From: a virus | Direction: 5' to 3' (one strand) | Length of the DNA: 64,000 nt | Virus record (IMG/VR): IMGVR_UViG_3300037130_000236 | Shown: positions 27,604 through 63,971 of the stretch, in pieces | How positions within the stretch are numbered: position 1 is the stretch's first letter | Layout: the number at the start of each line of letters is the position of its first letter | The notes under the pieces: generated by a model | What the model was told of the DNA's origin: nothing | Database searches by the model: none | Seen by the model: only the letters and a program-made list of their open reading frames with translations | Made by a program: the position numbers and the translations under genes

Positions 27604-27690
27604 TGGTGCAGATGAAGAGACTCGAACTCATACGCCGTTACGGGCACCAGCACCTCAAGCTGGCGTGTCTGCCAATTCCACCACATCTGC
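27604..27690 (-). tRNA. tRNA-Leu(GAG), CCA encoded
   Basis: GCAGATG/CATCTGC acceptor, CCAGC-TTGAGGT-GCTGG anticodon arm, long variable arm, A73-CCA. Confidence 0.95.
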
Positions 27691-27699
27691 GCTACAAGG

Positions 27700-27773
27700 T
27701 GGCTGGCGGTCAGGGATTCGAACCCCGATAAGCGCCTCCAAAGGGCACTATCCTACCGTTAGATGAACCGCCA
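27700..27773 (-). tRNA. tRNA-Gln(TTG), CCA encoded
   Basis: TGGCGGT/ACCGCCA acceptor, CTTTGGA loop, GGTTCGAATCC, G73-CCA. Confidence 0.95.
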
Positions 27774-29067: not shown

Positions 29068-29142
29068 CGTTTCTCCGATACAACTGCATCCTATGGAATT
29101 GTTGGCTGGAATTGGATAGAGGAAAGCCCCTAAACGTACGAA

Positions 29143-29962: not shown

Positions 29963-30088
29963 TGGCCTTTTTCCTCTCAGCTAATATCAGGCCGGAAGAT
30001 GGCCGTATTGAGGATAGGGGAAAGCCCCTATGAATCTTTTGTGACATGGAATACATGATGTTTCTGTATAATGCGCGTCCGGCCTGCT

Positions 30089-30355
30089 GGGCGCCCGAAG
30101 GCGCCCTTCTGTTGCCAGGCCAAGCAGACTTGGCCCCGTCTAGTCTTTCGGACTAGACAGCAGCAAGAACGCCCAGGGTGTTCTCCGCGGCCGTGGCCGG
30201 TTCGAAGACCTCAAACGTCATGCTGGCGACATACCCAGTGTTGGCATATATGCGTCTGTGTGTCCTTCTGCCGATCCAAAGATCGACACGGCAGCCACAC
30301 CACCCGGCTCGTCATCTCTATCCGTCACTGATTCCGTCGAAACCGTGACGGGCCC
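30089..30355 (-). ncRNA. ssrA: tmRNA coding piece (permuted gene); 3' limit approximate
   Basis: 5' GGGCCCGTCACGGTTTCGACGG, pseudoknot CTGCC/TGTC/GGCAG/GACA, resume context CATATAT-GCC, tag ANTGYVASMTFEVFEPATAAENTLGVLAAV* (30245-30153), stop inside the GTCTAGTC-CGAAA-GACTAGAC hairpin. Confidence 0.85.
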
Positions 30356-30421
30356 ACCAAAGCCCTCTCTGACTTACATTCCCCCGAAGTTCGGTGAACT
30401 TCAGCTAAAGCATGAGGGCTT

Positions 30422-30490
30422 TGGTGGACCCGGAGGGAATCGAACCCTCGTCCGAAATCGTGAAGACGATCTGTCTTCTCACGAGCGTTA
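30422..30490 (-). ncRNA. ssrA: tmRNA acceptor piece (permuted gene); 5' limit unknown
   Basis: ...GGACGAGGGTTCGATTCCCTCCGGGTCCACCA; pairs with GGGCCCG at 30355 to give a 7-bp stem with G3-U70; GCTCGT pairs with ACGAGC of the coding piece. Confidence 0.88.
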
Positions 30491-35525: not shown

Positions 35526-35615
35526 TGGCAGGGGCGACAGGATTTGAACCTGCAGTGAACTTGCGTTCCGTGGCTTTGGAGACCACTGTGCCGAACCGGA
35601 TTGCACATCACCCCT
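35526..35615 (-). tRNA. tRNA-Trp(CCA) with an atypical long variable arm, CCA encoded
   Basis: AGGGGTG/CGCCCCT, GTGC/GCAC D stem, GTGGT-CTCCAAA-GCCAC, GAAC-GCAA-GTTC variable hairpin, G73-CCA. Confidence 0.88.
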
Positions 35616-37428: not shown

Positions 37429-37559
37429 TGGTGGGGCAAGGAGGACTTGAACCTCCATGCAACGCCGGTCATGCAGCCCGGCTGCGCCTATCCTGCAGGG
37501 TTGAGCACTGTTGCGCCGGATTATCGGTCCGGTGTGTCTACCAGTTTCACCATCGCCCC
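37429..37559 (-). ncRNA. 131-nt tRNA-like RNA: Leu-type body, GAT anticodon, 59-nt variable region, CCA encoded
   Basis: GGGGCGA/TTGCCCC-A-CCA; GTG-AAACTGGTAGA-CAC D arm; CCGGA-CCGATAA-TCCGG; GGAGG-TTCAAGT-CCTCC. Confidence 0.82.
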
Positions 37560-45664: not shown

Positions 45665-47178
45665 CATTGCTGTCCAAAATAGCAGGAAGCTCTTCACGCT
45701 TGCCTGACGCGCAAAGTGGGCTGATCCCCGTTACTCTGGAGTGGGTTCCTGAGCAGAACCACAGCCAAAGAGAGAAGGATCAGCCATGACTCAAGTATGC
45801 AGTGTCTACTCGCAGCTTTTGCAACTTTTTCCACGCGGACAGTTCGCGCAGGCTGTCAAGCAGCATCAAGCCGAGTTCAACGCCAAGGGGTTCACCTGCT
45901 GGGAACAGTTCGTGGCCATGCTGTTTTGCCAGGTGGCGCATATGAACTCGCTACGCGAAGTCTGCCTGGGTCTGGCCGGATGCGAATCGCCGCTGAAGCA
46001 TCTGGGCATCAGCGCCGCGCCCAAGAAATCGACCTTAGCGTATGCCAACGCCAATCGCCCTTGGGAACTCTACCAGTCGATTTTCATGCAGTTGCTGGGA
46101 AAGTGTCAGGCCGAGACGGCGACCCGCAGTAGCCGCAAGTTCCGCTTCAAGAACAAGCTGATGAGCCTGGATGGCAGCATCATCGAGTTGTCGGCCACGA
46201 TGTTCGATTGGGCCAAGTATCGCCAGCGCAAGGGCGCCATCAAATTGCATCTGTTGTTGGACCACGACGGCTACCTGCCCTCGTTCGCGGTAGTGACGGA
46301 CGGCAAATATAGCGAACTGAAAGTGGCGCGAGGCTTGCATCTGGAAGCGGGTACGATCCTGGCCATTGATCGCGGCTACAACGATTACGTCTGGTTCGGG
46401 CAATTGACGCGGGACGGGGTCTTCTTCGTCACACGCATGAAGACCAACACGGTCTACACGACGGTCGAGGTGTGCGCGGTTCCAGAAAAGGGCAACGTGC
46501 TCAGCGACCAGATTGTCTCTCTGCCTTCCCTGGATAAGGATGGCGAGGCGCCGGTCCTGTTCCGGCGCATTGAATACTGGAACGCGGACAAGCAGGAGAT
46601 TCTGGTGTTCTTCACCAATCTTCTGCACTTGGCGGCCTCGACAGTAGCCGCGATCTATAAGGACCGTTGGCAGGTGGAACTGTTTTTTAAGGCCCTGAAG
46701 CAAACAGCAAAAGTGAAGTCGTTCCTGGGCACCAGCGCCAATGCGGTCAAGACGCAGATCTGGACGGCGCTGATCGCAATGCTGATCCTGAAGTACCTGC
46801 AGATGAAGTCCAGCTTTGGCTGGTCGCTTTCCAATCTGGCGGCCCTGCTGCGCCAGCAACTGTTCATCTTCAGGGACTTGTGGGCGTGGCTCAACAATCC
46901 GCTGGAGGGACCGCCAGCCGCACGGCAACTGGCCGAGCAGTTACCCATGCCGCTCATGTGGTAGCCACGAGTTGGACAGCAGAAGAAATGCAAGCATCCA
47001 CTTGAGCCCGTAGCACAGAACTTACACGCCGGCGAATTGGACAGCAGGATGCCGGAAACATAGAAGGTCCTCCAGCGCGAGTCATCGAAGAAACCTGACG
47101 CTATCGCCGGGAGAGGATACCTATGTCCAGTGAAATCAACCGCTCAATTCACAGAAAAAACTGTCTTGGACAAGAGTG
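45665..47178 (+). mobile_element. Complete IS4-family insertion sequence (1514 bp) with 9-bp target duplication GGTCGAGAT
   Basis: Left end CATTGCTGTCCAA, right end TTGGACAAGAGTG (10/13 inverted repeat); GGTCGAGAT at 45656-45664 and 47179-47187. Confidence 0.93.
45786..46964 (+). CDS. IS4-family DDE transposase (DUF4372 N-terminus)
   Basis: SLDGSII, KLHLLLD, IDRGYND, YKDRWQVELFFKALKQ, NAVKTQIW. Confidence 0.96.
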   Translation: MTQVCSVYSQLLQLFPRGQFAQAVKQHQAEFNAKGFTCWEQFVAMLFCQVAHMNSLREVCLGLAGCESPLKHLGISAAPKKSTLAYANANRPWELYQSIFMQLLGKCQAETATRSSRKFRFKNKLMSLDGSIIELSATMFDWAKYRQRKGAIKLHLLLDHDGYLPSFAVVTDGKYSELKVARGLHLEAGTILAIDRGYNDYVWFGQLTRDGVFFVTRMKTNTVYTTVEVCAVPEKGNVLSDQIVSLPSLDKDGEAPVLFRRIEYWNADKQEILVFFTNLLHLAASTVAAIYKDRWQVELFFKALKQTAKVKSFLGTSANAVKTQIWTALIAMLILKYLQMKSSFGWSLSNLAALLRQQLFIFRDLWAWLNNPLEGPPAARQLAEQLPMPLMW

Positions 47179-47812: not shown

Positions 47813-49840
47813 TTAGAAGGTGATCTTGAGGGTACGGGTGAAGCTGCCCTTCACGCGGCACAATATATAGTTCCGCTGTGTGGATGAAAAGCCGATGCCG
47901 CTCAGTTGGCGATCTGACTCCTCGGTCTTCATCTTCGAGCCAACAACCTCGAACACCTTGCGATGCACGTTGAGGCTGTCGGTCAGGAACTCGTTGAAGA
48001 ACCCGCGGGCCTTGCCATCATTGAGGCAGCCGTCGAGCATGAAGAAGTAATGCTTGTTGCCGACGGTCTTCTCATCCCAGTAGTTGGGCGAGAGCATGAG
48101 AACGGACACTTTGTGGAAGGTCTGGGTTGGAATACCCCAGAGATTCTTGGCCGCCTGCGATGAAGGAAGCGACTTGACGATCTCCAATCCGCCCTTGTGG
48201 GTGTAATTGAATTCCGCCACGACCGCAGCAGTGTTGGCAGGAACAGCCTTCGGATGAGCAAACGTGCGAACGACGCCATCGAATTCGATTTCAACTTCGA
48301 ACCCAACGTCCACGGTCTCCCGCTTGTTGTAGTTGTAAACGAATAGCCTGTAAAGGCCCTCGCGCATAGTCCTACGATCGGGATATGTGATGTTCTCGAC
48401 CGCGCTTCGGCTACCGCCAGATCCCACATTCATGTCCACATCGAGTTCACCACCCGCTCTTGACCGCCGGTTGCTGAAGCAGATCTCTTCGCCATTGATT
48501 GTCGTGCGAGATGCTCCAGGCTCGATGAGATGCAGATCGAGATCGTCATAGTTGAACCAGGACAGCGAACAGCGAAGGTCGCCGTCTACGGCGCCGCCGG
48601 CACGCTTGACACGTTCCTTGATGGAATCAGCAAGTTCTCCTGCATAGGACCAGGAGAAGTTGTTCGGCCATTTGAACATGGTCTTGGCCGTCGGATCGAC
48701 GGGAGAGATCAAGCTGAGCAGGTTGCCGGCGTGACGGTTCTCGAACATCACTTCCAACGACTCTGCCTTGGGCAGCACGTTGGCAAGGAAGTCCTCGATG
48801 GACACCGTCTCGATTTTGTCCAGGTTGGGTACCTTCTCGGGAACTGCGCTGGCCAGACCGTCGAAGACATTCATGGCCTTCTTGGCCTTGCGGTCCGCGA
48901 AGAGAATGTTGTTGATGGTAATGTCTTCGATGGTGGCGTAGCGACGATCCAGAGCAGAGGTGAACCCCAGCTCCTCGATCGTGGTACGCGCCTTCTCGAT
49001 CATTCCCTTGGTGATCAGAGCAGTCGGCCGTTTGTAGTTGGTGGGTGCGACCTTCGACTCGTACGAAGCTACGGCGGCATCCATTTCCCGGCCTTCGGAC
49101 AAGTCTGTGAGCAGCGATCCGATGACGTTGCCACGTATCCTTGATACCGCAGCCGGAACAGCCTTGGCATGCAACCAGGCGAACAGATCCTGCGCTTCCA
49201 CGCTGCGCACCTTGGCGAACTCCACCTTCAGCTTGCGGAAGCTGGTCAGTTCGAAAGTGTGCTCCTCACCGCGATACAACGAGTTCTGGCTGATCAGCTC
49301 AAGAATAGTGTCGATCGATTCCAGTGTGATCTCCTTGAGACCACGGAGAAGCACATCCTTGGTACTTCGGAAGTCCGACAGTTGTGGACCGATGGCATCG
49401 CCACGGACAACACAGGTTGTTGGAAGCGTGATGAAGAAGTGCTCCCAGGCCAGAACTTCCTTTGATTCAAGTTGCTGAAGGTTCCCATCCGTCCCTGCAG
49501 TGCGTTCGGTGTGAAGGAAGATGTTGTCGATCGGAGACAACTTGACCAGGGCGGACAGCGCATCAACTACCGGCTGGTAGGGACTGCCGACACGAACATC
49601 CCAGAGGCTCACGAGCTGTCCGTCAATGATGGCGACTATACCGCCTACTGCACGGATGAAGCTCTTGCAGCACTGGCAGTCATGCTCAGTCCGCTGTTTG
49701 TAGAGTGGGTTCGAGCCCGCCGGGAAGCTGCTGAGATAGACATCCCACAGCTGATCCTTGTCGACTTGCACCCGGTATAGTTGATACCCCTTCATGACAT
49801 CGAACTGCAGGGCAACCGCCTTCTTTAAGACACTGAACAT
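47813..49840 (-). CDS. Conserved large-phage hypothetical, 675 aa, with a C-terminal YfaP/DUF2135-like domain
   Basis: HDCQCCKSFI, SLSWFNYDDLDLH, ELDVDMN, AVENI, NKHYFFML. Confidence 0.75.
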   Translation of the reverse strand: MFSVLKKAVALQFDVMKGYQLYRVQVDKDQLWDVYLSSFPAGSNPLYKQRTEHDCQCCKSFIRAVGGIVAIIDGQLVSLWDVRVGSPYQPVVDALSALVKLSPIDNIFLHTERTAGTDGNLQQLESKEVLAWEHFFITLPTTCVVRGDAIGPQLSDFRSTKDVLLRGLKEITLESIDTILELISQNSLYRGEEHTFELTSFRKLKVEFAKVRSVEAQDLFAWLHAKAVPAAVSRIRGNVIGSLLTDLSEGREMDAAVASYESKVAPTNYKRPTALITKGMIEKARTTIEELGFTSALDRRYATIEDITINNILFADRKAKKAMNVFDGLASAVPEKVPNLDKIETVSIEDFLANVLPKAESLEVMFENRHAGNLLSLISPVDPTAKTMFKWPNNFSWSYAGELADSIKERVKRAGGAVDGDLRCSLSWFNYDDLDLHLIEPGASRTTINGEEICFSNRRSRAGGELDVDMNVGSGGSRSAVENITYPDRRTMREGLYRLFVYNYNKRETVDVGFEVEIEFDGVVRTFAHPKAVPANTAAVVAEFNYTHKGGLEIVKSLPSSQAAKNLWGIPTQTFHKVSVLMLSPNYWDEKTVGNKHYFFMLDGCLNDGKARGFFNEFLTDSLNVHRKVFEVVGSKMKTEESDRQLSGIGFSSTQRNYILCRVKGSFTRTLKITF

Positions 49841-50704: not shown

Positions 50705-51028
50705 AGCCGAATACTCCTCGCTCTCTCAGCGGGCGGCGCCTTCCAACGCCGCCCACTTTGATGTCCAGCAATTCTCTGGCAGTCGGTAAGCTCAGGACAG
50801 CTTCAGGCAATCTGTGTGTCCTGAACCTGGCATACTCGCTGTAGGTCCCAGTCGTGCTGGATCTGCCGTTTTACGGGCGTCTTGTTAAAGCCGAGTCGAA
50901 CACCGGACACCCTCGAGGACTGAGGCGTGGCGCTGGGATCATTGCCACTGCATGATGTGTTCGTTGGTGCGTCTCAAGCTGTGTCTACAGTAGGATGGAT
51001 GGGCTGCAGGCTGAATAGAGGGAAGCTC

Positions 51029-51457
51029 CTATGCGGCCTTCGCTTCAGGCACCAGCATGGTTGAGTGGCGATCGGCATCTTCCTCGCGGGCACGCTTCCA
51101 GCAATGCAGGAAGCCGCCGTCGTGGGCGCCTGTCTTCAGATCGATGGCGAAGATGCCAAAGAAGATTAGCGCCTCCAGCGCGAAGCTGGAAAATATCCCG
51201 AACACAACGCCACTGAGCACACCGACAATGGTGCGAACCCAGGGCGTCTTGATGGGCCGGGTGACCCAGACGACAAGCCACACGATCAGGAGCGCCGGCA
51301 TGAGAGCTGCAACCAGAAACAGGATGAGCAGCTCGACCGCGGACTTCATGGCAACCCACAGGAATGCCTTCCGACGGTAGCGCCTTCGGTTGCGCCAGAA
51401 TAAACAACTGCCGACAATCGCAATCGCGGCGGCCCATAACATGACGATTGGTTTCAT
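51029..51457 (-). CDS. Membrane protein
   Basis: GGAGG RBS; several hydrophobic helices. Confidence 0.6.
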   Translation of the reverse strand: MKPIVMLWAAAIAIVGSCLFWRNRRRYRRKAFLWVAMKSAVELLILFLVAALMPALLIVWLVVWVTRPIKTPWVRTIVGVLSGVVFGIFSSFALEALIFFGIFAIDLKTGAHDGGFLHCWKRAREEDADRHSTMLVPEAKAA

Positions 51458-59337: not shown

Positions 59338-60314
59338 GGCAGTCTCCTAGCAGATGGCAGCCGATGCACCGGCAGCCTGCATGGCCTTGTTGCACTGGGC
59401 GTTAAAAATGGCAGCGAGAATCAGGGCAGTGATTACCCCGGCAATGACACGAGCAGCGATGTAACCAAGCATCTCCAGCATGAGCATTCTCCTTGAACAC
59501 ACAGGTTGTACCGAGTGGATGAGAGACAGGACGTAAAGTCCATAGAGGGAAGGCATTACAGCAAAGCGATGAGCCTGGTAGTGGAGTACCAGGCCCATGG
59601 GTGCCACAGATGGCACAAAGCTTGATCGAGCAGGATATAGCGACTCTGGTGTATAACCGGCTTTCCGCTTTCAGCAAAGCCGATGATGGGGTTTACACTC
59701 ACCCACCACTCCTGAACACAGCCAGAAGTGGATTTACACTAGGTCTCTCCGTCCTGCCTGACACCAACACATACACGCGCGCACGCGGGAGCTGGTTCTC
59801 AGGATTGCCCTTAAATAGCCAAACCACAATAGGCCGCGGTCAAGCTTCACCACCGTTCAATAGGCGGTAGTTTCAGCATGACTGGCTTTTATGGGCTTAA
59901 ATGAATCCGGCGCTCCAAAGCTCTTTAACGTGATCTGAGCATCGGGGACGTGGTACATGTGGGCATAAGCCACTGTAAGCATCTGAATGACAGACACTTA
60001 CCTGACTACCTCACCACTTCGCCTGACACGCCTCTACCCGAGGGCGAAGCCCCTCGGGACATAGCGGCTGTTCTGCGGCTGGTTGCCCAGCGGCGGGTAT
60101 TGACTGTTGGCATATCCATATATAGGTATTGACTGACCCTGGGCTGAGCCCAATGAGGCAATCGATCCCATGTGTGGTTCCAACTTGCCGATTCCCAGGA
60201 CGAATCCTGGTCATCAGGATGGGCATGACCCATCAATGTCAGAATCGTTCCAGAGTGGAATGATCCTGACATTTCGGCCTTCAAGCAGGGCCGAACCGCC
60301 AAGTTGTTAATGGT

Positions 60315-63300
60315 TTAGAAGTCTGTGCTTTCGTCGAACTCGAAGTCCTCTGAAGCAATCTCTGCCACCAGGTTGGACTTGTAGTCCGAGTGCAGCTCAG
60401 GAGCTGAGTCATAGACGTGGATCACGCCCTTGGGCGACATCATGTAGCTGCCGTCCGGGATGGTTGGATCGGCTGTGCGGGACAGGAGCTTGTCATTGCT
60501 GCGGTGGTAGATATTGCCACCGAGAGCCTTGACTGCTACTGGCCTAACCAGCCGGCGCTTTGCATAGCCGTTGAGGTCGATGAATGCGACGCAACCGGTA
60601 AGGCCGAGATCCTCCTCGGCCGACAGGATGTCATCCAGGATGTAGTTCGGCACACCGTCACCGACGGATTGCGTGAACTTGTCCTCCCCAACGAGTGGGT
60701 CGGTGTTGCGGTTATAGACCGTGTTGAGCCAGTAAATTCCGAACTTGCGCCGAGTCTCCACAGACCATGGCCGCCCGGACACACTGAGAGTGGTGCCCGA
60801 TACGGAGAACTGGTTGGTGTAGAAATCAACTAGGCCTGGAGTGTGAACTTCCTCCATGCTGGTGACCTTGCCGGTGGCGTCCTTGACCAGGATGGTCTCG
60901 GTGAAGCCATTGGCAATACGGTCATAGACGTTGTCAGGCAGCACGCCGCCGTTGTCGGCCTTGGCTTCCTGGAACTGACGAATCCACCAGCTGCGAAGGT
61001 CTCTGACCATCGAGAGGATAGCTTCATCCTCCGGATAGGCATTGAGCAGCTTGGCTGCCAGTGGCCGCTTGATCATGTGTTCCACCTGACGGCTCTCTTC
61101 GAGCAACTGGTCACGACGCGTGTTCAGCAGATTGAGCGCCTTGCACAGCTTGGTTTCCACCAGAATGTAGTTGCCCATGTTCTTGCGATCACGGGGCATG
61201 CGGTTGGCGAAGGAGATCGGAAAGACCAATGTCTTCAGAGCTTCCTTAGCCTCAGCGAAGAGCGACATCACTGTCAGCTTGTCGCCTTTACGCATCTGGG
61301 TGTAATCGATGACCAGGTCCGAGTTGGACATGGCACGAGCACACATGAAGTCTGGCTTGGCGGCGTTGACAAGCGATGCCACATAGACAAACCAGTCCAG
61401 CGTAGGCTCATACTCGATCGGCACGATCTTCGCCAGTCCCTCAGGCAGCAGCTGAATCAGCTCATGCCTTTGCGGAGCGATGAAGTTGTCAGGCACGATG
61501 AACGTCTTGGCCTGCAGGCTCTCACCGATGGTGATCCGGTGTTCGCCAGACAACAGGGTGTCCAGCCAGCCGTTGTTGATGAAGGAACCCAGGGATTCCG
61601 AATACTCGGTGAACTCCCTGAGCTGCTGTGCGAAGCAGTTGAAGTTCCACTCATCGCCGATGCCCAGCCACTTCTCGCGGTTGGTCTTGGCGAATGCGGA
61701 TACCTCACGGACTTTGATGGTGAGTTTGGGTTGAACTGGATAGTCCATCGTCTGCCACTTGGCGATGAAGGCAGGGTCCTGGATGGCGAACAGATTGTCA
61801 TCCATATCCCCACCATTCAGCTTGCCCAGCAGATCGCCGGCGTTGGCGCCGAAGAAGCACCAGCCCTGTCCCTTGGACTCCAGGAGTTCAGGAACAAGGA
61901 TGTTGCAGACAAGAACCATCTCAGTTGAGTTGGTGTTGGGATTACGCCCAACGAGCACCGGGCCTTCCAGGAGATCCGGAATGCACACGGTAGGCAGCCC
62001 ATCCCGCTCGCCACCGAGAGTGTCGAGTGTGAAGTCGGGCATGCCGTTGGGCATCATGACCAGTGGATTGGGCCGAGCATAGACACGGATCGCACCCTTT
62101 AGTGGAATGCGGCCGCGGGTAATGTCCAGAGAATCCTGGAAGCCATGCTTGAAGATCCGCCGGTAGAGCACCGGCAGAGTCTTCGATTCATGCTGCAGCT
62201 TCATGGCACGCACCAGCGCCCATTCGGGCTTGGGCATATCCATGTCGCGGCGAGCAGCGTCCGACACATTCACCAGAGTGGCGAAGTAGTCAGTGATGGC
62301 ATCTTCGTCGTCGCCGAAGAGGATCTTGGCACGCTCGTCCATGACCTCAAGGCCATACCGTACGCAGAGGTCTTCTTCGAAGAACCCGGCATTGGTGATG
62401 GTCTGAAGATCGGTCATGAGTTCGTGCTTGCTGGTCTTCAACAGCAGCCCGATGTAGATGCGGTCGCCATGAAAGACGACCTCGTCCTTGGAGCCATAGA
62501 GATAGATGTCATAATCTGCCATCCTCTCGTTTGCTGCGTAAATACCTTTGCCGAGACCGAATGGTCCGACCAGGGTTGCAGCGCACCCGTCAAAGCCGGG
62601 TAAGTTGATGACGCCAGAGCCATCTAGGAAGCTGGTCTCCTGATCGTTGAGCAGCTTCATGTTGAAGTTGAGAATGGAGATGACTCTCCCATTCTTCAGC
62701 TTGGCCATGGTGACCTGGCCTGTCGGCACCGGATAGCTCGAGATGATCTCGGCTTCCAGCATGGACTGGTGAGCAGCCATGGTACGGCGCATCCGCTTGG
62801 GCGCCTTGGGATCAGAGGAGATGAACACTCCCAGATCCTTGAGGCGCTTGACGTTGGCCGAAGCTGACACCAGGACCATGGTCCCGGTGCCATTGACATC
62901 GGCATAGACGACGCGGAAGCGTTCGTCACCTTCAGTCCAGCCGTGACGGCAAAGGAACTTCGCCGTTTCAGCCATGTCCTTGCATCCATCCTTGCCGGAC
63001 GCTTCGAATGTGACGATGCCATACCTGGCACCTTCGGGCATCAGTGCATCGAGAACCTGCCGGGTCTCATGCTGCATGAAGTGCTCGTCCTTCTGATAGA
63101 GAACAGGCTTGCCGGGATACGGCCGGCGCACACGAGTGATGATCTCTACGTCCGTTGCGTCATAGAGAATGTGGAAAGCCATTCGGCTGTCGTGGTTCCA
63201 CAAGGGAACTTCGACATCAGTCGCTTCGCCGTCAGAGTAGATGAACTCCTCTGCCGTTTGCTCATCTTCGAGACGCAATGCCTTCACGTCTTCCTCCTTG

Positions 63301-63368
63301 AGATGATTGTGAATTGGGCTGTGGCTTAGAGCGATCAGTTCGCTCAACAGATTCTTGTCGTTAGACAT
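60315..63368 (-). CDS. Single-subunit two-barrel RNA polymerase-like protein (YonO / cellular RdRP-like), ~1017 aa
   Basis: FLDGSGVI, GPFGLGKG, GPVLVGRNP, LNGGDMDDNLFAIQDPAFI occur in the order of the RdRP motifs F(S/T)DGxG, GxKG, VLVxxNP, SGxDLDGD.yfv.wD; AAGGAG RBS before ATG 63368. Confidence 0.75.
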   Translation of the reverse strand: MSNDKNLLSELIALSHSPIHNHLKEEDVKALRLEDEQTAEEFIYSDGEATDVEVPLWNHDSRMAFHILYDATDVEIITRVRRPYPGKPVLYQKDEHFMQHETRQVLDALMPEGARYGIVTFEASGKDGCKDMAETAKFLCRHGWTEGDERFRVVYADVNGTGTMVLVSASANVKRLKDLGVFISSDPKAPKRMRRTMAAHQSMLEAEIISSYPVPTGQVTMAKLKNGRVISILNFNMKLLNDQETSFLDGSGVINLPGFDGCAATLVGPFGLGKGIYAANERMADYDIYLYGSKDEVVFHGDRIYIGLLLKTSKHELMTDLQTITNAGFFEEDLCVRYGLEVMDERAKILFGDDEDAITDYFATLVNVSDAARRDMDMPKPEWALVRAMKLQHESKTLPVLYRRIFKHGFQDSLDITRGRIPLKGAIRVYARPNPLVMMPNGMPDFTLDTLGGERDGLPTVCIPDLLEGPVLVGRNPNTNSTEMVLVCNILVPELLESKGQGWCFFGANAGDLLGKLNGGDMDDNLFAIQDPAFIAKWQTMDYPVQPKLTIKVREVSAFAKTNREKWLGIGDEWNFNCFAQQLREFTEYSESLGSFINNGWLDTLLSGEHRITIGESLQAKTFIVPDNFIAPQRHELIQLLPEGLAKIVPIEYEPTLDWFVYVASLVNAAKPDFMCARAMSNSDLVIDYTQMRKGDKLTVMSLFAEAKEALKTLVFPISFANRMPRDRKNMGNYILVETKLCKALNLLNTRRDQLLEESRQVEHMIKRPLAAKLLNAYPEDEAILSMVRDLRSWWIRQFQEAKADNGGVLPDNVYDRIANGFTETILVKDATGKVTSMEEVHTPGLVDFYTNQFSVSGTTLSVSGRPWSVETRRKFGIYWLNTVYNRNTDPLVGEDKFTQSVGDGVPNYILDDILSAEEDLGLTGCVAFIDLNGYAKRRLVRPVAVKALGGNIYHRSNDKLLSRTADPTIPDGSYMMSPKGVIHVYDSAPELHSDYKSNLVAEIASEDFEFDESTDF

Positions 63369-63502
63369 GGTGATTCTCCTTCCCCCTCCACGGGGTCGGT
63401 TGAGTACGAATGAGTTTTGCTGGGTCTTGTGCGCAGAAGCCGCGGGCATGGGCTTCCTGTTGCCAGTCAGTTCCCATGCCCTGTTTGCGTCGTTGAGTAG
63501 TC

Positions 63503-63775
63503 TTAGAGGGAGGCAGGCGTTGCGGCCGTCTTCTTGGCGAAGAGGCCAGTGAACCCAGTCCATGCCTGCTTGGCTGCCGGGATCGCACAGACCTGAGCGG
63601 TGCCAGCCGCACGGGCTGTCACATCGGTGGTGCGCTGCGTGGCATCGGCGGCATAGTGAATGCCTTTGGCAAGGTTGTCGCCGATGAAGTGAATGGCGAT
63701 GGAGCTGAATGCTCCGTTGACGATTTCGTTCAACATGGCACGCTGTTCAGGTGTGAGCTGTTTCTTCGTGGTCAT
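63503..63775 (-). CDS. Small hypothetical protein upstream of the polymerase
   Basis: AAGGAG RBS. Confidence 0.6.
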   Translation of the reverse strand: MTTKKQLTPEQRAMLNEIVNGAFSSIAIHFIGDNLAKGIHYAADATQRTTDVTARAAGTAQVCAIPAAKQAWTGFTGLFAKKTAATPASL

Positions 63776-63801: not shown

Positions 63802-63971
63802 GAATTAGGACCGGGTGGGCTAAAACCCAAATAGGCCAGCCTCCCTGTACTACTTGTTACCTGGTGTCTTCATCCCCATCACTTGCGGCGCCTCGCACGA
63901 AGCCCCATGAACGAGTCACATGACCAGTTGCTGCTCTGTTTATGAGTCGCTGAATTAGACCCGGGTGGGCT
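63802..63971. repeat. Two 20-bp direct repeats GAATTAG(GA/AC)CCGGGTGGGCT, 150 bp apart
   Basis: 63802-63821 and 63952-63971, 18/20 identical. Confidence 0.75.

Follow-up and report, generated by a model that had tools for sequence, protein, structure and literature searches.

Two-barrel RNA polymerases (RNAPs), from those of bacteria to Pol II and the polymerases of RNA interference (RNAi), carry a DxDGD/DxDxD loop whose three aspartates have been described as invariant in all members (PMC2919709, PMC10770324). Eight residues in total were reported to be invariant in all two-barrel RNAPs by Ruprich-Robert and Thuriaux (PMC2919709). Among the single-chain enzymes, the reference structures for the cellular RNA-dependent RNA polymerases (RdRPs) of RNA silencing, represented by Pfam PF05183, are Neurospora QDE-1 (PDB 2J7N, 7Y7P-T) and plant RDR2 (7W82, 7EU1, 7ROZ). 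Phages also encode polymerases of the two-barrel clade: YonO of the Bacillus prophage SPbeta and gp64 of Thermus phage P23-45 are DNA-dependent RNAPs (PMC5467207, PMC10770324), and the virion RNAPs gp66 of the crAss-like phage phi14:2 (PDB 6VR4) and P23-45 gp96 (8H2M) are portions of giant proteins of the virion or tail, which enter by injection together with the DNA. The present analysis concerns a 64,000-nucleotide stretch of viral DNA (IMG/VR record IMGVR_UViG_3300037130_000236), referred to at its full length as the window, and a polymerase gene on its minus strand at positions 60315..63368. The encoded polymerase is intact and of a known kind, a single-chain two-barrel RNAP of the QDE-1/RDR/gp64/YonO clade; its family is undescribed and its catalytic loop, DxDD, is a variant of the canonical one.

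The enzyme differs from QDE-1 and RDR2 in having DxDD in place of DxDGD, in lacking a sequence counterpart of QDE-1 R738, in an identity of only 11-14%, in falling below the PF05183 cut-off, and in being bacterial and phage-encoded with no RNAi partner genes seen. It shares with gp64 a free-standing gene outside the virion module and a two-barrel fold. Both gp64 and its P74-26 counterpart gp62 (PDB 8F72, 8F5M), however, have about 590 residues and come from lytic Thermus phages, whereas the enzyme described here comes from an Acidobacteria prophage, exceeds them by about 420 residues and has additional domains at both its N and C termini (PMC10770324). The Thermus enzymes are recognised by a DxDxD signature, and no sequence similarity to them was found by phmmer against PDB sequences, which returned only a chance match. 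Like YonO, the polymerase is prophage-encoded, roughly 100 kDa and of the same broad clade, and in both elements the gene is followed by non-coding DNA that includes an RNA (PMC5467207). In the SPbeta record, YonO carries R-S-P 43 residues before its aspartate loop, comparable to the R-x-P of the prophage enzyme. The YonO loop, in contrast, is a canonical DNDGD, YonO does not match the Pfam RdRP family, and its gene precedes a late structural operon, whereas the gene in the window precedes early-like and replication genes. Unlike the virion RNAPs, the prophage polymerase is free-standing and lies outside the structural module.

Gene boundaries and predicted fold

Translation of the minus strand gave an open frame of 1082 amino acids at window 60315-63563. 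Met66 of this frame, at 63368, is the start in all 23 aligned homologs, and an AGGAG Shine-Dalgarno sequence lies 7 nt before the ATG at 63368, indicating that the true start is 63368 and that the gene runs from 63368 to 60315 (stop codon 60315-60317) and encodes 1017 amino acids. Residue numbers refer to this protein unless the 1082-residue frame is named. The original prediction had given the coordinates 60315-63368, which proved exact, and had reported four motifs in the order and spacing of two-barrel polymerases. All four are present in the 1017-residue protein: FLDGSG at 247-252, GLGKG at 271-275, VLVGRNP at 471-477 and NGGDMDDNLFAIQD at 518-531. The distances D249 to K274, K274 to R475 and R475 to D521 are 25, 201 and 46 residues, compared with 34, 219 and 45 for D709, K743, R962 and D1007 of QDE-1 (residue numbers from PMC2919709).

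An AlphaFold2 model (24 homologs) had a mean predicted local distance difference test score (pLDDT) of 84.6 and a predicted template modelling score of 0.77, with disorder confined to the first 54 and last 11 residues. As modelled, the protein would contain the catalytic core of two double-psi beta-barrels that places it in the two-barrel superfamily, and the barrels on which the original prediction had staked its claim are present in the predicted structure. A beta-like barrel region was assigned approximately to residues 200-320 (62409..62771, minus strand, as are all coding features of the gene), a beta-rich block of the model that falls within the part of the protein aligned to RDR2 and QDE-1 and includes FLD249-G250-SG and GLGK274-G275. 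The beta'-like double-psi beta-barrel comprises residues 422-531 (61776..62105). Within it, R475-N-P477 (61938..61946) is the counterpart of QDE-1 R962-x-P964 in a hidden Markov model (HMM) alignment to QDE-1, and G519-G-D521-M-D523-D524 (61797..61814) forms the predicted, shortened metal-binding loop.

When the model was searched against the PDB with Foldseek, as had been proposed for QDE-1, the best folds were plant RDR2 (E 3.1e-14) and Neurospora QDE-1 (E 3.4e-14 to 1e-13), both with probability 1.0. They were followed by the phage non-virion RNAPs P74-26 gp62 (1.4e-6) and the gp64-type enzyme 8f72 (1.8e-5) and, at lower ranks, by Pol IV, a crAss-like phage virion RNAP and bacterial beta'. 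A search of predicted viral structures returned, as its best matches, uncharacterised Caudovirales proteins and proteins whose depositors had labelled them RNA-dependent RNA polymerase.

The fold search was unambiguous; links at the sequence level pointed in the same direction, and the motif match goes beyond what chance would give. A profile of the 24 homologs matched QDE-1 chains (E 0.002), with v-R-n-P placed over A-R-S-P and GGDmD-D over GGDYDgD. Residues 529-625 of the 1082-residue frame matched PF05183 with E 0.014 and 14.5 bits, against a gathering threshold of 23.8 bits, so that by Pfam's rule the protein is not a member. Seven of 48 diverse relatives matched PF05183 at E <= 0.01 (best 1.5e-10) and no other family recurred; the nearest named cluster in the ESM Atlas has PF05183 in 39% of its members. 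Judged from these matches, the DxDD family borders PF05183. No PHROGs family was found for the polymerase, and a tblastn search against 50,697 phage records gave no match. Placement in the QDE-1/RDR-like clade of single-chain two-barrel polymerases is supported by both fold and profile. Of the description in the original prediction, a polymerase like YonO and the RdRPs of RNAi, the second half thus stood, while sequence kinship to YonO did not: aligned with hhalign, the family profile and YonO gave a probability of 1.2% (E 0.044) over an unrelated stretch.

The DxDD loop in the family

In the HMMER alignment to QDE-1, the loop GGDMD-D keeps the three aspartates of GGDYDGD and lacks the glycine, which appears as an insertion in QDE-1; the missing glycine had been noticed from the sequence of this one gene. 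The spacing of D521-M-D523-D524 consequently departs from the canonical DxDGD/DxDxD. Conservation of the short loop was then a matter of the relatives, and DxDD was found in 111 of 111 relatives of at least 600 residues, whereas DxDGD was found in none of them. In 109 of the 111 the motif falls at the aligned HMM columns, and motif search identified it in the two misaligned rows as GGDNDD and GGDLDD.

Other residues of the predicted active site are conserved to a similar degree. In an alignment of 48 diverse members with about 20% mean identity, K191, R195, G250, K274, G275, P477, G519, D521, D523 and D524 are invariant and R475 is nearly so. Across the 111 long relatives, the R-x-P motif, equivalent to R962/P964 of QDE-1 and R446/P448 of Rpb1 and located 46 residues before D521, keeps its arginine in 107 and its proline in 110. 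K274-G275 corresponds by motif and spacing, as distinct from superposition, to the K-G motif of the beta-like barrel (QDE-1 K743, Rpb2 K987). Position 249 of FLDGSG (compare QDE-1 D709 and Rpb2 D837) is more variable, with aspartate in 82 of the 111, glutamate in 11 and other residues in the rest. Measured against the eight canonical residues, five are in place, the third aspartate sits one position away, aspartate or glutamate occupies the acidic site of the first barrel in 93 of 111, and R738 of QDE-1 is without an equivalent in sequence.

The gene has also been maintained as a coding sequence. Compared with the intact copy in G002, a closely related IMG/VR record, the window differs at 34 synonymous and 8 non-synonymous codons, and compared with the intact copy in L046 at 95 and 20, respectively. 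The ratio of non-synonymous to synonymous substitution rates (dN/dS) against these intact close copies is about 0.06. The presence of DxDD in all relatives, together with this purifying selection, indicates that the short loop is a family trait and not damage. A catalytically dead relic or structural protein, whose short loop marks lost activity, is accordingly very hard to credit. Such an origin would explain why the loop departs from a motif described as universal, why one of the eight canonical residues could not be identified, and why the copy in the related genome G001 is frameshifted. Against this stand the DxDD, R-x-P and K-G motifs, which vary little or not at all in a family whose members share about 20% identity, the low dN/dS, and a gene that is intact not only in the window but also in G002 and other viral contigs. 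The original prediction had named the case of an inactive copy among homologs that all carry DxDGD, and the reverse was observed.

The family is of considerable size. A word-indexed search returned 27 homologs, all unnamed or annotated 'hypothetical protein', and an exhaustive profile search returned 249 representatives of clusters formed at 50% identity at E <= 1e-3, of which 101 were at E <= 1e-30; ten representatives checked by exact look-up carried no informative name. In the literature searched, DxDD was not mentioned for two-barrel or double-psi polymerases; this search did not extend to alignments of the 23 RNAP families described so far (PMC10770324). With 249 clusters and strong purifying selection, the DxDD family contradicts the description of DxDGD/DxDxD as invariant, its aspartates being kept on a loop one residue shorter, and searches for phage RNAPs that demand DxDxD would miss it. 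The conservation pattern suggests that the active site may tolerate, or even exploit, a different metal-binding geometry.

Near-identical sequence was present in runs from about 15 studies of peat and permafrost metagenomes. The frameshifted copy of G001, a related metagenome-assembled genome (MAG), lies on contig 4 at 3184994-3188045 (L002/L004); it is 98-99% identical and broken near residue 135. A second match, 77% identical and covering residues 1-540 only, occurs at a distant site on the same contig (484604-486250, L003). A distant branch of the family, with proteins of about 1100 residues and the loop NGADFDD, was found on at least four contigs of one Acidobacteriota MAG (L016, L017, L018, L021), which suggests several related prophages or a mobile element; it was also found at L015, L019, L020 and L022-L025.

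Genomic setting and probable function

The window is 96-98% identical to G002, which is classed as a provirus and has a length of 124 kb, and the polymerase gene recurs in MAGs of Acidobacteriaceae. Portal and terminase genes lie on the other side of the polymerase gene, and the related genome G001 also encodes a major head protein and a tail sheath. Within the window are genes for a ribonucleotide reductase (RNR) large subunit, ligase-like proteins, a clamp loader, a sliding clamp, Erf, a RecD/Dda helicase, a non-specific nuclease and PTH2; beyond it, G002 encodes a split family A DNA polymerase, a DnaG/Toprim primase and a RecA-like protein. The element can be described as a large, temperate, myovirus-like phage that is integrated in peat-soil Acidobacteriaceae and brings its own genes for replication.

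A divergent strand switch is followed by a same-strand run of about 60 kb in which the polymerase gene comes second, in agreement with the original prediction that it heads such a run. Homologs at 24%, 33% and 40% identity, one of them on a 216-kb contig, share this layout, in which a strand switch and a few tiny genes precede the polymerase and a gap of 0.4-0.7 kb separates it from many small genes on the same strand. One of these homologs has an N-terminal phage DNA-binding zinc finger, PF24623. The layout shared by distant homologs and the zinc finger in one of them fit an early-expressed non-virion RNAP such as P23-45 gp64 (PMC10770324).

The protein is probably an active, non-virion DNA-dependent RNAP for phage genes, with P23-45 gp64 and SPbeta YonO as examples of enzymes that work in this way. 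Early expression of the gene would start in the conserved region of control sequences at the divergent switch and would depend on the RNA polymerase of the host or on one injected by the phage. The product would then transcribe phage DNA without the host enzyme, most plausibly the long downstream run, later genes or both. Catalysis would use the usual two-barrel site, R475-x-P477, K274 and the acidic residue at 249, and the Mg-binding triad would be D521-x-D523-D524, on a loop that lacks one residue relative to D-x-D-G-D. The family would thereby add a putatively self-transcribing large prophage lineage in the Acidobacteriaceae, an abundant soil group.

Several observations weigh against this assignment. 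The nearest solved folds, QDE-1 and RDR2, also copy RNA. No sequence counterpart of QDE-1 R738 (Rpb2 K979), the second basic residue 5-8 positions ahead of the K-G motif, was found in the polymerase: the aligned stretch holds a conserved Thr265, and there is no basic residue at 265-273 before the K-G motif. On the basis of their conservation, K191, R195 and K294, which are invariant or nearly so, might replace R738 in three dimensions. The gene and those next to it are covered by contigs from four metatranscriptome studies, which might stem from carried-over DNA; since such contigs give no strand, ends or level, they were not counted as expression. Finally, searches of the 64-kb window for direct repeats, for intergenic 16-mers with <=3 mismatches and for 13-mers with <=1 mismatch over the whole minus strand revealed no recurrent promoter-like motif beyond tRNA-like arms, and the target genes are therefore ones that we infer. 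The DNA template, the timing and the coordination of metal by the D523-D524 pair are inferred as well.

The kinship of fold to RNA-copying enzymes raises the main alternative, that of an RNA-templated or dual-template polymerase like QDE-1, which would copy phage or host RNA, for example the structured RNA at 60013-60310, or make double-stranded RNA for regulation or counter-defence. This seems unlikely, as YonO, gp64 and gp96 use DNA templates (PMC5467207, PMC10770324), QDE-1 itself uses DNA too (PMC9508822), differences in Z score reflect chain length in part, one homolog carries a DNA-binding zinc finger, and RNAi-like partner genes were not seen among the proteins of the window.

The company of the gene suggests another role, that of a two-barrel enzyme of DNA metabolism performing primase-like or PolD-like DNA synthesis for the replication module that it heads. 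Replication genes are abundant in the run (RNR, ligases, clamp, clamp loader, helicase and Erf), DNA synthesis by a two-barrel core has a precedent in PolD (PMC7708050), and an altered loop could accompany altered substrate choice. The phage, however, already has its own split family A polymerase and DnaG-type primase, which makes a replicative role for the two-barrel enzyme unlikely. No PolD chain was present among the 50 best structural matches listed, and the closest folds are all RNA polymerases. Taken with these points, such a function appears very improbable, and a non-virion RNAP for phage genes is the preferred assignment. The split family A polymerase of G002 lies at 96218-99349 (L030:16218-19349) and consists of an exonuclease/N-terminal part of 466 residues and a palm part of 337 residues, with small open reading frames (ORFs) between them.

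Flanking RNA, control region and other features of the prophage

A structured non-coding RNA block of about 300 nt was identified directly 3' of the polymerase stop codon (60013..60310, minus strand) from DNA conservation and RNAalifold, and an ORF at 60006-60302 is probably spurious. RNAalifold predicted 74 pairs, 18 of them with compensatory changes. Shuffled alignments gave 7.1 +/- 1.9 covarying pairs, with none of 500 shuffles reaching 18, and sliding the partners gave 1-5. In addition, 90.7% of cells were paired, compared with 27-50% when partners were slid. The RNA matched no Rfam family, even at E <= 10. Its junction words GAAA / UU / CUGAUGA resemble the core of a hammerhead; as no Rfam hammerhead was matched even at that threshold and stem II would be non-canonical, the RNA was not called a ribozyme. 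A similar hammerhead-like core was seen on an unrelated 62-kb viral contig (L042:13596-13633).

A candidate for a second polymerase was found in the tail module of G001 contig 4, after the sheath gene (L035:14341-17766). In this ORF of 1141 residues, PLGFEGRATAR, R-H-P and MDADGD follow one another as in a beta' barrel; its full-length homologs have 1642-1723 residues. From these motifs it may be a tail-borne virion RNAP with a canonical DxDGD, a second polymerase that is not confirmed: phmmer against the PDB, hhalign against the DxDD family and Pfam were all negative, and the AlphaFold2 model (pLDDT 48.6) was too poor for a fold search.

The short loop, the covarying RNA and the tail-module ORF together allow a more far-reaching proposal, that the DxDD clade is a functionally distinct two-barrel branch. 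The compressed loop would alter the handling of metal or substrate (a single metal, a preference for Mn, or relaxed template choice as in QDE-1), the enzyme would act with the 300-nt RNA as template, primer, processing ribozyme or regulator, and it would perhaps work with the candidate tail-module polymerase in a host-independent transcription relay. This proposal is speculative and unlikely as it stands. Two suggestions of the original prediction, altered chemistry or RNA templates and one self-contained control system of polymerase and non-coding RNAs, are likewise hypotheses.

Upstream of the polymerase, the sequences on the minus strand suggest a control region. A 5' leader at 63369..63400 contains a small hairpin, CCCC-GTGGA-GGGG, running into the AGGAG; it is near-identical in phages whose polymerases are only about 49% identical, and may have a functional role. 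The first gene of the run is an ORF of 90 residues (63506..63775) that tblastn always placed directly upstream of the polymerase. Across five related loci its identity is 74-96% (L013: 40%), compared with 45-53% for the polymerase, and it has no Pfam or PHROG match; by its position only, it may be tied to the polymerase.

The DNA of the leader of this ORF is conserved, and in general the sequences that flank the polymerase gene are better conserved than the gene itself. A 19-nt promoter- or operator-like motif, AGCCCACCSGGKNCTAATT, occurs about 27 nt before the 90-residue ORF (63803..63821) and again at 63953..63971, giving two copies in the window against 0.11 expected. In every related locus a single copy occupies the equivalent position, and no others occur in the loci examined. 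The AGCCCACC..CTAATT motif was found only in the control region upstream of the polymerase operon.

Elsewhere in the window, the minus strand carries a circularly permuted transfer-messenger RNA (tmRNA; Rfam RF04321, 70.7 bits) alongside several genes of tRNA or tRNA-like type, of which one has 128 nt. The permuted tmRNA and these genes lie at 30218-30486, 27604-27773, 35526-35615 and 37432-37559. The phage run is interrupted at 45665-47174 by an IS4-family insertion sequence (DDE transposase at 45786-46964, plus strand) that is absent from G002; the depth of metatranscriptome contigs was much higher on this element, as expected for a multi-copy insertion sequence. A protein of 675 residues encoded at 47813-49840 on the minus strand matched PHROG 1735, whose function is unassigned, over its full length (E 1e-267) and is widely conserved in phages. 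A 19-nt element is present in three copies, at 29114-29132, 30012-30030 and 51013-51031; it contains a small hairpin of the GGGGCTTTCCCC type, reads TAGGGGCTTTCCCCTATCC on the minus strand, and could, from its sequence, be a terminator or a regulatory hairpin.

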